A stretch of 64,000 bases of DNA, from assembly GCF_054482595.1 (NCBI RefSeq), contig NZ_CM137008.1; one strand, 5' to 3'. Position numbers: made by a program. Each line of letters begins with the position of its first letter. Positions within the stretch are counted from its first letter, which is position 1. Below, piece after piece: positions 8,201-13,940 of the stretch.

Positions 8201-11200
8201 ACAGGTCATGTATAAAACCTACATCATGTAAACAAACTCATCGAATTGCACCTCCTGTTTGTGGAGGTGCTTTTTTGTGCACAGCTCCCCAGCCAGGCTG
8301 GGGGTTCCGGAAAGCTTTCAGTTTTGAGCCAGTTATTAAAACCTCTTTTGATTTGTTAAAACACCTTGCGGTATGGCAACAGCAAGTGTCAAACAAAAAA
8401 TCAAAAGGGGGACCCAATGGGGAACGAAAAGAGCTAGCGCACCCCGATGGAACTGTAAATATCACATAGTTTTTGCGCCAAAATACCGAAGACAAGTGTT
8501 CTACAGAGAGAAGCGTAGAGCAACAGGCAGTATTTTGAGAAAGCTGTGTGAGTGGAAAAGCGTACGGATTCTTGAAGCTGAGTGCTGTGCAGATCATATC
8601 CATATGCTTGTGGAGATCCCGCCCAAAATGAGCGCATCCGGCTTTATGGGATATCTGAAAGGGAAAAGCAGTCTGATGCTTTACGAGCAGTTTGGTGATT
8701 TGAAATTCAAATACAGGAACAGGGAGTTCTGGTGCAGTGGGTACTAAGTCGATACGGTGGGTAAGAACACGGCGAAGATACAGGATTACATAAAGCACCA
8801 GCTTGAAGAGGATAAAATGGGAGAGCAGTTATCGATTCCCTACCTGGGCAGCGCGTTTATGGACCGTGAGTAACGAAGTTGGATGCAAATGTCAGATCGT
8901 GTGCGCCTGTTAGGGCGCGGCTGGTAAGAGAGCCTTATAGGCGCATGACCAGACGTATAAAAACCAACGGCAGAAGCGCGTTCATGTTCCGGGAACCAGC
9001 TGGTCACCATCCGGTTATTGGTCGGGAAAGCGGGCGCTTCGAAAATACTGGTTATCGCGCGCAGACCAATTAATGACATTAATCCCGTGGCAAAGCCCTG
9101 GAATAACGTCGCCACTGACCAGCCAAATATCGCAATAAAATAAGTCACGCGTGAACCTACGCGATCTAAAAACCAACCGCCGGGGATCTGACATAGCGTA
9201 TAAAGCCAGGCGAAGGCCGAAAATACATAGCCCATTTCCGCTTTGGTAATGCCGAACTCTTCCTGAATATGGGCGGCAGCCACGGCCAGGTTAGCGCGGT
9301 CAACATAACAAATGACCACCGTAATAAAGATCATCACCAGCGTCAGATAACGCCGACGCCCCGGCTTTGCTGCATTAACGGGAATATCCATAGCGAGCTT
9401 TCTCCTGATTTTGGGCATAGCGAAGCCGCTCACCATGCCCTGTAATTTACAGAGGGTTATATTTTTGTATTGCTGTTTTAGTGCCCGATGAGGGGCTTAC
9501 GTGGCAGGAATTACCACTCTGCTACGCTGTTATCTTCATGACGCCAGAGCGGATTACGCCAGTCCGGGGCATTTTTACTGAACTCAATAACTTTAGCTTC
9601 GTCGATTTCCACGCCTAAGCCCGGTTTCGTTAGCGGTTTAAAGAAGCCGCCGACCATGCTGAAGTCCTCTTTGTTTTTCACAAAGTCGAGTAACTCCGCG
9701 CCTTTGTTGTAATGAATGCCCATACTTTGTTCCTGAAGTACGGCGTTATAGGAAACAAAGTCGATATGCAGGCAAGCTGCCAGTGCAATCGGTCCGAGCG
9801 GACAGTGCGGCGCAAGGGTCACGTCATAGGCTTCTGCCATTCCGGCAATTTTGTAGCATTCGGTAATACCGCCTGCGTGGGAGAGATCCGGTTGCAGAAT
9901 CGAAATACCACCCGCCTCCAGCACACGTTTAAAATCGAAACGTGAGAACATGCGCTCACCCGCCGCCAGTGGAATATGCGTTTGTGCCGCCAGTTTCGGG
10001 TAGTATTCGGCCTGTTCTGCCAGCACCGGCTCTTCAATAAACAGCGGGCGATACGGTTCCAGTTCTTTAATCAGTACTTTCGCCATCGGCGCGCTGACGC
10101 GACCGTGGAAATCAAGACCAAACTCAATCTGATTGCCAAAAGCTTCACGAATTTGTGCCACGGTGTTGACCGCCGCATCTACCGCGCGGGAGTTATCAAT
10201 TAGCCCCAGTTCTTCACAACCATTCAGTTTGAAGGTATCAAAACCGATTTCGCGCAGGATTTTTATTCCGTCGATAACATTCGCCGGACGATCGCCGCCG
10301 ACCCAACTGTAGGCTTTAATTTTGTCACGCACCAGGCCGCCCATCAGTTGCCAGACCGGCGAATTCAGCACTTTGCCTTTGATATCCCATAACGCCTGGT
10401 CGATCCCGGCAATGGCGCTCATCAGGATTGGACCTCCACGATAAAATCCGGCGCGATACATCACTTGCCATAAGTCATTGATGCGCGATGGATCCTGACC
10501 AATCAAATAGTCACCCAGCTCGTGAACTGCCGCTTCCACCGTACGGGCGCGGCCTTCGATCACGGGCTCGCCCCAGCCGACCACGCCTTCATCGGTTTCA
10601 ATTTTCAGGAACATCCAGCGGGGAGGTAAACGATACGTGGTAATTTTGGTGATTTTCATTGCACTGCCTCTCGATACGCCTTAACAAATGCTGCTGCCTG
10701 CTGCGCGGTGCGTTCTACGGACTGCCCGGCGCGATAGAGATCGCTGCCTAAGCCTGCCCCTGCACAACCTGCGTCTATCCACTGCGCCAGGTTTTCTGGC
10801 GTCACGCCGCCAACGGCAAAGACTGCGATGTCCGGTGGTAATACCGCTTTTAACGCTTTGATGTATTGCGGACCAAAAGCCGATGACGGAAATATTTTCA
10901 GCGCCTGAGCGCCCGCGTCGAGCGCGGTAAAGGCTTCGGTCGCCGTCGCGCAGCCGGGGCAAACGGTCATGCCGTAGCCCACCGCACGGCGGATCACTTC
11001 ACTATGGATATTGGGCGTAACGATGAGCTGGCAGCCCATCCTGGCGAGCACATCGACCTGTTCAGGTTTCAGTACCGTACCTGCGCCAATCAACGCCTTG
11101 TCGCCGTACGCATCAACGATGGCGGGAATGCTCTGCTCCCATTGTGGGGAATTCAGCGGGATTTCAACTGCGTCGAACCCGGCGTCAATCACCGCGCCAA

Positions 11201-13940
11201 CATGCACCAGCGCCTCGTCGGGCGTAATGCCGCGCAAAATGGCGATCAGCGGGAGTTTAGTTTGCCACTGCATGAGCGATGCTCCTTATACCAGCCTGAA
11301 ATGCCTTGTCGCCCGCCACCACCGCCACGTCGCAACCCATCGCCTGAAAGGCTTGCTGGTAGCGCGCGGTCAGCGATGTTCCGGCGACAAGGGTGATGGC
11401 GTGTTGATGGGTCACATAGTCGCGCATACTGGCAACCTCTGCGCCAATCAACAAACCAGAGAGAAATTCGCTGACCTGTTCGCGGGGAAGCGTTCCCAGC
11501 ACATGCGAGGCGCGAACTTCAAAAAGCTGCGGCAATATGGCGGGCGCATTAAGGCCACGCTCAAGGCCAGCCGCGAAGGCATCGGCAGAGTTTTCCTGCG
11601 GCGGCAAACCTGCGCCAATCAATGAGTGATTTAACAGTAAATGATGTAATTCACCGGTCATTACGGTGCGAAAATCGTTGATTTGCTGGCTATCGGCCTG
11701 CACCCATTTGCAATGGGTTCCGGGCATAACATAAAGAGAGGAAGGAGCCAGAGCACGCGCGCCGATCAATTGTGTTTCTTCGCCGCGCATCACATTGTGG
11801 TTATCGTCATGAGAAACGCATAATCCGGGAATAATCCAGATATTGTCGCCAACCGACGTTAATTGTTCGCCAATAGACGAAAAACGGACAGGAACAGATA
11901 AATACGGCGCAACTTTCCAGCCGACATTGCTGCCAACCATTCCTGCCATTACCACTGGCGTTTTCTCTTCACGCCAGTCGGTCGTGACTTCTGCTAACAC
12001 CGCAGCCGGAGATTTTCCGTTCAGGCGCGTGACGCCTGCTTCTGATTGCCTGCTCTCCAGGCAGTGGTCGCCCTGATAAAGCCAGGCGCGCAGATTGGTC
12101 GATCCCCAGTCAATTGCGATGTAGCGAGCTGTCATGTGATTTCCTTTAACCTTCGTGTCGAGCTGGCGATCATGGTAAGCGCCGCCTGCTCTGCCGCATC
12201 GCCGTCCTGATGCCGTATCGCATCGAACAGCGCCTTTTGTTCCTGGAGCGTTTGCGGCATGTTGGCCTCATCACCCATCCAGGTTCGTTCAAATACCGCC
12301 CGCTGCAGCGAACTGATCGCAATGCTAAGTTGCTGTAACACCGGATTATGTACCGACTGCAGCACCGCCTCGTGGTAGCGAATATCCGCTTCGTTAAACG
12401 CTTCGCGGTCCTGATTGTTGGCAATCATCTCGTTCAGCGCCGATTCAATCTGCGCCAGATCGCTGGAAGTCGCGCGCTCTGCTGCCCAACGGGCAATCGC
12501 CGGTTCCACCAGATTTCGCACTTCGCTCATGGCACTGATAAGTCGTGGGTCGTAGTCGTTTTCCAGCACCCATTGCAGTACGTCAGTGTCGAGGTAATTC
12601 CACTGGTTACGCGGTGCCACAAACGCGCCGCGATAACGTTTCATTTCAATCAGCCGCTTCGCCATCAGCGAACGGAACACCTCACGGATGATGTTGCGCG
12701 AGGTTGCGAACTCCTCACAGAGCTCCGCCTCAGCCGGAAGCGGCGAGCCTGGCACGTATTTGCCGTGAACGATCTGTTTACCCAGCGTAATGACGATGCG
12801 ATCGGTTTTATTGAGAGTCATGGAGAGTCCTTGTGCTCTGTATGTTCTTCTCTACTTTACCCCGATCGATGCATAACGCGGCAACTTTGTAGTACCAGCG
12901 TGATAACGTTCGCGTTTGCTGTGTGCGTAATGTAGTACAAGCTTATATTGCTGTACTACAATTTAGATCGCAAAAAGAACAATGCATAAAAAAATGACAT
13001 GCGTCGGGCAGAAATGGAAAAGGGATATCAGGCGCTAAACAGGAGGGAAAGAAGAGTATGCTTTCAACGACTTAGTACTCAGACAGCAGCTTTTCCAGCG
13101 TCAGCGATGCGAATGAGGTAGTTCTGATTCATGACCGTTTTTATAATCCGGCTATGATATTTTTACCACATTGTCAGCGCGTTAAGGCGTGATGTTTTTG
13201 GCTGACGCTAGCCCAGCTTACTAAGGAGCATTGCCAGCTGCGGGCGGGTAAAGGATACCCCGCCGTCACGTACCGCAAGCCAGATAAATTGCCTTCCTCC
13301 TGGCGCTTGGTGAAAAGACACAGACCATCAGCCCAGAATATTTTAACAGTGTCACCCCGTCGGCCTCGGAAGATAAACAGGTGGCCGAAGAAGGGATTAT
13401 AATTCAGCACATGTTGACCCTGTTTTCCCAGTCCGTTGAAGGATTTACGCATATCAGCTACCCCGGCAATGAGGCAGATACGGGTACCGGATGGTAGTGA
13501 GATCATCGTCTCCTCCTGGCTAACTCACGGATTAACACCTTGAGCAGCTCTGGTGAAGGATTTTCCAACACATCATGTTACTGAGACGGAACTCAACCTT
13601 ACAGGAACTGACACTGACTGTGTTATGGGGGGAAATGGATAAAGATGGAGCAATAGACATCATCGTATTTTTCTGTTCATTCGGCGTTATCTCAACAGGT
13701 AATAATTTAACGCCAGCGTCAGAAGTAGTCGTTACAGGAAGACGCCGCGAAACAACACAGGTTCAGGAGAATAAGGTAGAGCGTCTATAGTCCTGTTTCC
13801 TCCATCTAGGATGTCTGATGGAAATTCATCAGATACACTAAGGATCCCCATAAAGTATTTTATTGGCACACATCAGACATCCTTTAGGTATCCAGCAAGT
13901 TATTGAACTATTGCGTCGTCTCGTTCAAACTTCTCTTTTA

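Follow-up and report, generated by a model that had tools for sequence, protein, structure and literature searches.

The native galactonate operon of Escherichia coli, dgoRKADT, lies near dnaA between yidX and cbrA, with yidX 5′ of dgoR and with the stop codon of dgoT overlapped by cbrA; D-galactonate catabolism by this operon is under repression by DgoR. Gut-colonisation studies repeatedly turn up D-galactonate use and dgoR mutations, and dgoR mutations were selected in gut-adaptation experiments. IS200C, an insertion sequence (IS) of the IS200/IS605 family, is ~708 bp long and encodes a Y1 HUH transposase, TnpA. We analysed a stretch of 64,000 nucleotides (the window) of contig NZ_CM137008.1 (NCBI RefSeq assembly GCF_054482595.1), in which a dgo operon with a broken dgoT adjoins a relic of IS200C. 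The dgo genes of the window are, very probably, an island-borne paralogous copy of the operon, whose dgoT was cut by one 967-bp deletion from a full-length island ancestor. We found nothing specific in the literature on a second dgo copy or on this island.

Our calls on the window rest on open reading frames (ORFs), nucleotide and protein homology, curated NCBIfam and Pfam profiles, and comparison genomes. Homology to canonical yidX-dgoRKADT-cbrA runs, at its full extent, from 13080 to 8946 with 97.3% identity. This is the alignment with a reference dgo locus that a preliminary description of the window had proposed as a check, and the 3′ part of dgoT is missing from it. On the yidX side, the homology begins ~20 nt away from the start codon of yidX; on the other side, in the intact island allele described below, it ends 16 nt past the dgoT stop codon. 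Neither yidX nor cbrA borders the operon in the window. The flanks are instead relics of IS66 and IS200C, with a LysR-family gene beyond, so that what had been taken for ‘the galactonate operon’ of the strain is not the native one. In the closest complete genome, ABW_A19 (99.9% identical), the segment is annotated in an IS-littered genomic island, which also holds aspartase, Dcu-type transporter, asparaginase, peptidase and HypT-like LysR-family genes, and which adjoins cobUST, nac, cbl, yeeO and three tRNA-Asn genes. A separate native dgo locus near dnaA was found in the island-bearing genomes WP4-S18-ESBL-08, SFE8, TUM1880, 3036 and SMS-3-5, and the island was also found on a conjugative plasmid. 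This anatomy suggests that the island once captured a 5.05-kb piece of the E. coli chromosome, with one end ~20 nt inside the yidX-dgoR intergenic region and the other 16 nt beyond the stop codon of dgoT. The captured piece would have comprised the dgo promoter and operators and complete dgoR, dgoK, dgoA, dgoD and dgoT.

The island copy shares with the native operon its gene order (dgoR-dgoK-dgoA-dgoD-dgoT), the promoter 5′ of dgoR with its operator repeats, 97.3% of its nucleotides, and intact DgoR, DgoK, DgoA and DgoD. It differs in its location on an island (also on plasmids), in a dgoT of 148 codons, in the substitution H195Q in DgoR and in 30 island-specific substitutions altogether. The coordinates are collected in Table 1. 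The ~256 nt 5′ of the dgoR ATG aligned as near-identical to three canonical alleles, with both operator half-sites conserved. DgoA scored 333.2 bits with NF006600 (cut-off 207), the profile of 2-keto-3-deoxy-6-phosphogalactonate (KDPGal) aldolase, and DgoD scored 690.8 bits with the galactonate dehydratase equivalog NF010624 (cut-off 311). Relative to eight canonical alleles, the island copy carries 19 synonymous and 11 non-synonymous private changes. The ratio of non-synonymous to synonymous change per site (pN/pS) is 0.18 on the island-specific branch, versus 0.03–0.06 between canonical alleles, and the four complete genes thus look constrained or only mildly relaxed. In the dgoT stump, all three private changes are non-synonymous, and the stump therefore looks unconstrained. 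The change G130S in the stump is unique to the window.

Table 1. Features of the island-borne dgo copy and related elements in the window.
Feature	Position	Strand	Description
Terminator-like hairpin and T-run	8248-8276	plus	directly left of the IS200C left end; -8.9 kcal/mol, z = -4.8
IS200C relic	8277-8946	plus	left-end hairpin kept, tnpA broken, right end missing
Deletion junction J1	8946/8947		GGCGCAT/GACCAG, 1-nt microhomology; 967 bp missing versus the intact allele
dgoT 5′ remnant	8948-9436	minus	148 native codons from MDIPV, 163 from the PGAP start
dgoD	9511-10659	minus	intact, 382 aa, 99.0% protein identity to K-12
dgoA	10656-11273	minus	intact, 205 aa, 98.0% protein identity to K-12
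dgoK	11257-12135	minus	intact, 292 aa, 97.3% protein identity to K-12; matches PF05035 (DGOK)
Gene-conversion patch in dgoK, codons 40-67	11935-12017 (at most 11927-12212)	minus	K-12-like canonical type
dgoR	12132-12821	minus	intact, 229 aa, 99.6% protein identity to K-12
dgoR codon 195	12237-12239	minus	CAT to CAA, H195Q
yidX-dgoR intergenic region, captured	12822-13080	minus	dgo promoter and two DgoR operator repeats (TGTAGTACA ... TGTACTACA)
Orphan IS200C right end	16386-16425	minus	hairpin CCTCCGGC-TAT-GCCGGAGG; 40 nt, abuts IS1 (joint J2)
IS1	16426-17193	plus	replaces the second IS200C body and ~9 kb of island DNA
Decayed distant dgoD homologue fragment	37209-37464	plus	71% nucleotide identity to dgoD nt 353-647

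The truncation of dgoT was evident at both the nucleotide and the protein level, canonical dgoT homology stopping at 8946. The ORF at 8840–9436 is DgoT-like up to ...FYTSG, continues through 35 codons of IS sequence and ends with a stop codon at 8840. A protein-level search recovered DgoT residues 1–164 in the numbering of the Prokaryotic Genome Annotation Pipeline (PGAP), which itself labels the stump ‘MFS transporter, incomplete’ (MFS, major facilitator superfamily). The stump aligns with residues 1–148 of the DgoT structure 6E9N, and these residues, all that remains of a 12-helix MFS transporter, are predicted to cover roughly the first four helices. With the profile TIGR00893 it scored 177 bits against a cut-off of 395, matching only positions 1–127 of 399. 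Nucleotide and protein searches found no 3′ part of dgoT anywhere in the 64-kb window. Past the IS relic lie a LysR-family gene (6814–7713) and a racemase gene (5755–6474). In these respects the preliminary description was right: it had reported dgoR, dgoK, dgoA and dgoD as intact (all four are full length, with 97–99.6% protein identity to K-12, and so persist beside the broken dgoT), a dgoT that halts after ~148 codons, the absence of its C-terminal part past the IS, and a passage from there into a LysR/racemase region.

The IS sequence next to dgoT is itself incomplete. Window positions 8262–8946 are ~95% identical to IS200C copies dispersed in E. coli genomes, and we aligned the relic with two intact copies, located 3′ of typA and 3′ of kdsA. 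It shares with IS200C ~95% identity over 670 nt, the left-end hairpin (8287–8303) and a TnpA remnant that still matches the equivalog NF033573 with 116 bits. It differs from IS200C by two frameshifts in tnpA (each a 1-nt deletion), a TAC-to-TAA stop codon in the same gene, a 3-nt deletion near the left end and the lack of a right-end hairpin; PGAP labels it a ‘frameshifted; internal stop’ tnpA pseudogene. Both intact copies run on past ...GGCGCAT with TTGAAAAACCTCCGGCTATGCCGGAGGATATTT, which forms the right-end hairpin, whereas the relic ends at 8946 without this right end of 33–37 nt. With the right-end hairpin missing, the relic is not mobilisable even in trans.

The joint between this relic and dgoT, J1, thus contains no IS end. 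It pairs an internally truncated IS with an internally truncated gene, which makes it a deletion joint and not an insertion boundary. The sequence before the deletion is preserved in a full-length island allele, found on the SMS-3-5 chromosome and on plasmid pWP4-S18-ESBL-07_1 (IncFIB/IncI-gamma, conjugative), with a 445-aa MFS gene. In this allele, which is collinear with the window on both sides at 99.2–99.9% identity, IS200C has a complete right end (~37–40 nt) and is followed by an 83-nt spacer and the dgoT 3′ part, which rejoins the window at 8946. Canonical DNA in the spacer is confined to the 16 nt adjoining dgoT. The 967 bp lost from the window therefore correspond to the last ~37 nt of IS200C with the right-end hairpin, the 83-nt spacer, and dgoT codons 149–430 (MDIPV numbering). 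In the ancestral form, an IS200C whose tnpA was dead but whose right end was complete lay 83 nt past dgoT, and a second, inverted IS200C lay ~8 kb away; pWP4-S18-ESBL-07_1 has the latter complete, whereas SMS-3-5 keeps only its right end and a further 107 nt. The truncated form derives from the full-length one, since it could not plausibly have regained an IS right end. The deletion or rearrangement junction that had been proposed here is thus a 967-bp deletion, shown against the full-length allele. Its description as an IS200-like boundary needs amending: an IS200-family relic does adjoin dgoT, but the joint is not an IS end, the IS having lost its last ~37 nt.

The window copy and the full-length island or plasmid copy share the island context and the flanking relics of IS200C, IS66 and ISEc31. 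The window copy lacks the 967 bp and adds DgoR H195Q, a gene-conversion patch in dgoK and the IS1-associated loss of the second IS200C. We counted the two forms over 5,426 complete E. coli genomes. The LysR flank of the island occurs in 225 of them, the full-length IS200C-spacer-dgoT junction in 115 and the truncated junction J1 in 101 (~2%), and ~4% of the genomes have a second dgo copy, full-length or truncated, on the island or on a plasmid. The feature is an ordinary one: the mosaic island carries a paralogous operon copy that has become pseudogenised, is common in the species and has already been annotated.

The alternative that survives best is that the window holds the only galactonate operon of the strain, cut by an IS200-associated rearrangement, so that D-galactonate is not taken up. 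We regard this as a serious possibility, although we lean against it. The left part of the window (1–31171) is 99.9–99.98% identical to ABW_A19, and the closest relatives of these 31 kb have lost the native operon. It is wholly deleted in ABW_A19 and EC1515, in which J1 was checked directly and which also carry J2, as well as in EC974, 4FM and DSM 103246, in which J1 was deduced from coverage. The deletion is 100% identical in these genomes. At the native site of ABW_A19, cbrA is followed by a 114-nt dgoT 3′ stub, 135 nt of intergenic DNA and yidX (2991–3239 of the extracted segment). The same deletion with its 114-nt stub occurs in 413 of the 5,426 complete genomes (7.6%). Furthermore, WP4-S18-ESBL-08, which has the truncated island allele, carries a Gln-to-stop change in its native dgoT (12055–13392 of the extracted segment).

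Against this alternative, the window copy is demonstrably off the native site, and three truncated-allele genomes (SFE8, TUM1880 and 3036) keep an intact native dgoRKADT. In addition, the window is a mosaic. Positions 32503–56384 are only 98.8% identical to ABW_A19, whereas the right 19 kb (38000–57000) are 100% identical to SMS-3-5-type genomes, and the native operon of SMS-3-5 is intact. An IS3-family element (31172–32502) sits at the switch point. Finally, a patch in dgoK is the product of gene conversion: 7 of 7 consecutive informative sites in it are of the canonical K-12 type, the other 94 sites being of the island type, and the seven clustered substitutions are absent from dgoK of ABW_A19, SFE8, WP4-S18-ESBL-08, SMS-3-5 and the plasmid. 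The lineage thus met canonical dgo DNA after its split from the ABW_A19 copy. As proof of a resident native locus the patch is weakened, since the donor allele was K-12-like and unlike the native allele of SMS-3-5, whose core is identical to the right half of the window; this mismatch indicates that the donor may have been incoming DNA. We also considered the ‘2 places’ per genome returned by a dgo query as proof of a native copy, but this fails, because the native operon is deleted in ABW_A19. The second place in ABW_A19 may be the dgoD-like fragment at 37 kb, a short megablast match.

The failure of D-galactonate uptake that the preliminary description had predicted would be possible if the native locus were defective too, but it does not follow from the window, as genomes with the truncated allele vary in this respect. 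That the strain is without a functional DgoT is a tentative proposition, somewhat the less probable of the two outcomes. On our reading of the dgo genes as an island-borne copy, uptake would depend on native yidX-dgoRKADT-cbrA, outside the window. Transcription and regulation of the remaining dgoR(H195Q)-dgoK-dgoA-dgoD unit could still proceed from the conserved promoter that it retains. Beside an intact native locus, the island copy would raise enzyme dosage and supply a variant repressor; without a native locus, the enzymes would be present and DgoT missing. E. coli strains can have two, one or no DgoT transporters, and since a dgo operon found in a stretch of DNA is not necessarily native, no phenotype should be called from it. 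WP4-S18-ESBL-08 is a case with two dgo operons and no intact transporter. Some genomes with the native deletion have a full-length island copy (for example, AHM8C212RI), which would then be the sole complete dgo operon there.

A further proposal assigns a role to the variant repressor. DgoR has a Zn-coordinating triad, D146/H150/H195, and the substitution H195A lowers its binding of both DNA and galactonate (PMC7674646). The triad is incomplete in the window, codon 195 encoding Gln. H195Q was present in all four truncated-type islands checked (the window, ABW_A19, WP4-S18-ESBL-08 and SFE8) and absent from both full-length-type islands (SMS-3-5 and pWP4-S18-ESBL-07_1). It is not among the twelve natural DgoR variants tested in PMC12288454. 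The island module might be imagined as a regulatory modifier and not mere debris, with DgoR H195Q, altered at a zinc and effector ligand, being effector-blind or dominant-negative in trans on native dgo and selected jointly with the loss of dgoT; we consider this improbable. Given the recurrence of D-galactonate use and dgoR mutations in gut-colonisation work, an island copy with an H195Q repressor could confound studies that relate genotype to phenotype.

The orphan right end on the other side of the operon (Table 1) is the remnant of the second, inverted IS200C copy. Compared with SMS-3-5 and CM2, the ~9 kb replaced by IS1 there contained MFS, LacI, nucleoside hydrolase and MgtC genes and their neighbours. 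J2 was found in only 15 complete genomes, and ABW_A19 and EC1515 carry it. It is absent from the truncated-type genomes WP4-S18-ESBL-08 and SFE8, in which the second copy is uninterrupted, and J2 is thus a later event. One could instead suppose that a single inversion split one IS200C, yielding both the joint of its body with dgoT at J1 and the orphan right end. It is true that both breakpoints share one IS200C coordinate, overlapping by the 3 nt CAT, and that the orientations of the two pieces are opposite. However, J1 occurs together with an uninterrupted second copy in WP4-S18-ESBL-08 and SFE8, it is found in 101 genomes versus 15 for J2, and two inverted IS200C copies were already present in the ancestral allele. 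An inversion also predicts the dgoT 3′ part beside the orphan end, where IS1 is found instead. We therefore consider the inversion very unlikely. We also tried schemes in which an IS1-mediated inversion or deletion gives J1 and J2 in one event; none accounts for the joints, and J1 occurs in genomes that lack J2.

Even less credible is a simple insertion of IS200C into dgoT, with the distal part of the gene lost later. The IS200C and dgoT homologies meet at a single base, 8946, as an insertion would have it, but the IS at the joint lacks its own right end, and in the intact allele the IS lies outside the gene, 83 nt past the dgoT stop codon. TnpA cleavage 5′ of the right-end hairpin, which we also considered, is unsupported, since the flanks are unlike IS200C cleavage-site contexts. 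An assembly artefact, or a gene split by misassembly, has nothing in its favour but the abruptness of the junction and can practically be dismissed: the identical J1 is present in 101 complete E. coli genomes assembled independently in different projects, which shows that 8946/8947 is no artefact; draft contigs matching the window at 100% identity over 12.5–13.4 kb have it as well.

Several points weigh against the single deletion in an island-borne copy that we favour, or leave it incomplete. The left end of J1 lies within 3 nt (the CAT overlap) of the cut in the second IS200C copy at 16425/16426, a coincidence that two independent events do not predict. The native locus of the window's strain is outside view. 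H195Q, moreover, could leave the island repressor defective or effector-blind, in which case extra dosage would be an incomplete description of what the island copy adds. As for the coincidence, a minor and improbable possibility is that the foot of the IS200C right-end hairpin (GGCGCAT/TTGAAAAA) is a recombination hot spot; if so, this would account for a deletion and an IS1 joint striking two copies at one coordinate.

Apart from the operon, the 64 kb contain a single dgo-related match, the fragment at 37 kb, which had been described as a second dgoD fragment at 37196..37480. A dgoD-like piece is indeed there, but it does not come from the operon: it lies on the opposite strand and is 70–72% identical to E. 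coli dgoD alleles, the island copy included, and it reaches no more than 75% identity with any plasmid-borne dgoD. The dgoD of the operon is complete, so nothing is missing there for the fragment to supply. Judged by its sequence, the fragment is an older relic unrelated to the operon. Beside it lies a clbP/clbQ relic (37828–38166), 86% identical to the E. coli pks island, which is a relic of a diverged colibactin island.

Other observations concern the surroundings of the operon. At three independent sites (3′ of typA, 3′ of kdsA and in the window), IS200C directly follows a hairpin and T-run resembling a Rho-independent terminator. The hairpin at 8248–8276 is flanking DNA and not part of the IS, because it differs at each of the three sites. 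The arrangement suggests a target preference of IS200C for terminator T-tracts. The aspartate ammonia-lyase gene region is present in two inverted copies (2775–4225 and 23627–25077), ~99% identical, which bracket ~19 kb of the island, the dgo module among them; strain CM2 has the intervening segment in the opposite orientation to that of the window. The island version on pWP4-S18-ESBL-07_1 contains an extra 7.6-kb sugar-acid cluster (14500–21600 of the extracted plasmid segment), which is absent from the window, where its insertion point falls between 15567 and 15568. This cluster comprises a second DgoK/DgoA-like pair, an IlvD-type dehydratase, a DapA-like aldolase, an MFS transporter and a GntR regulator.

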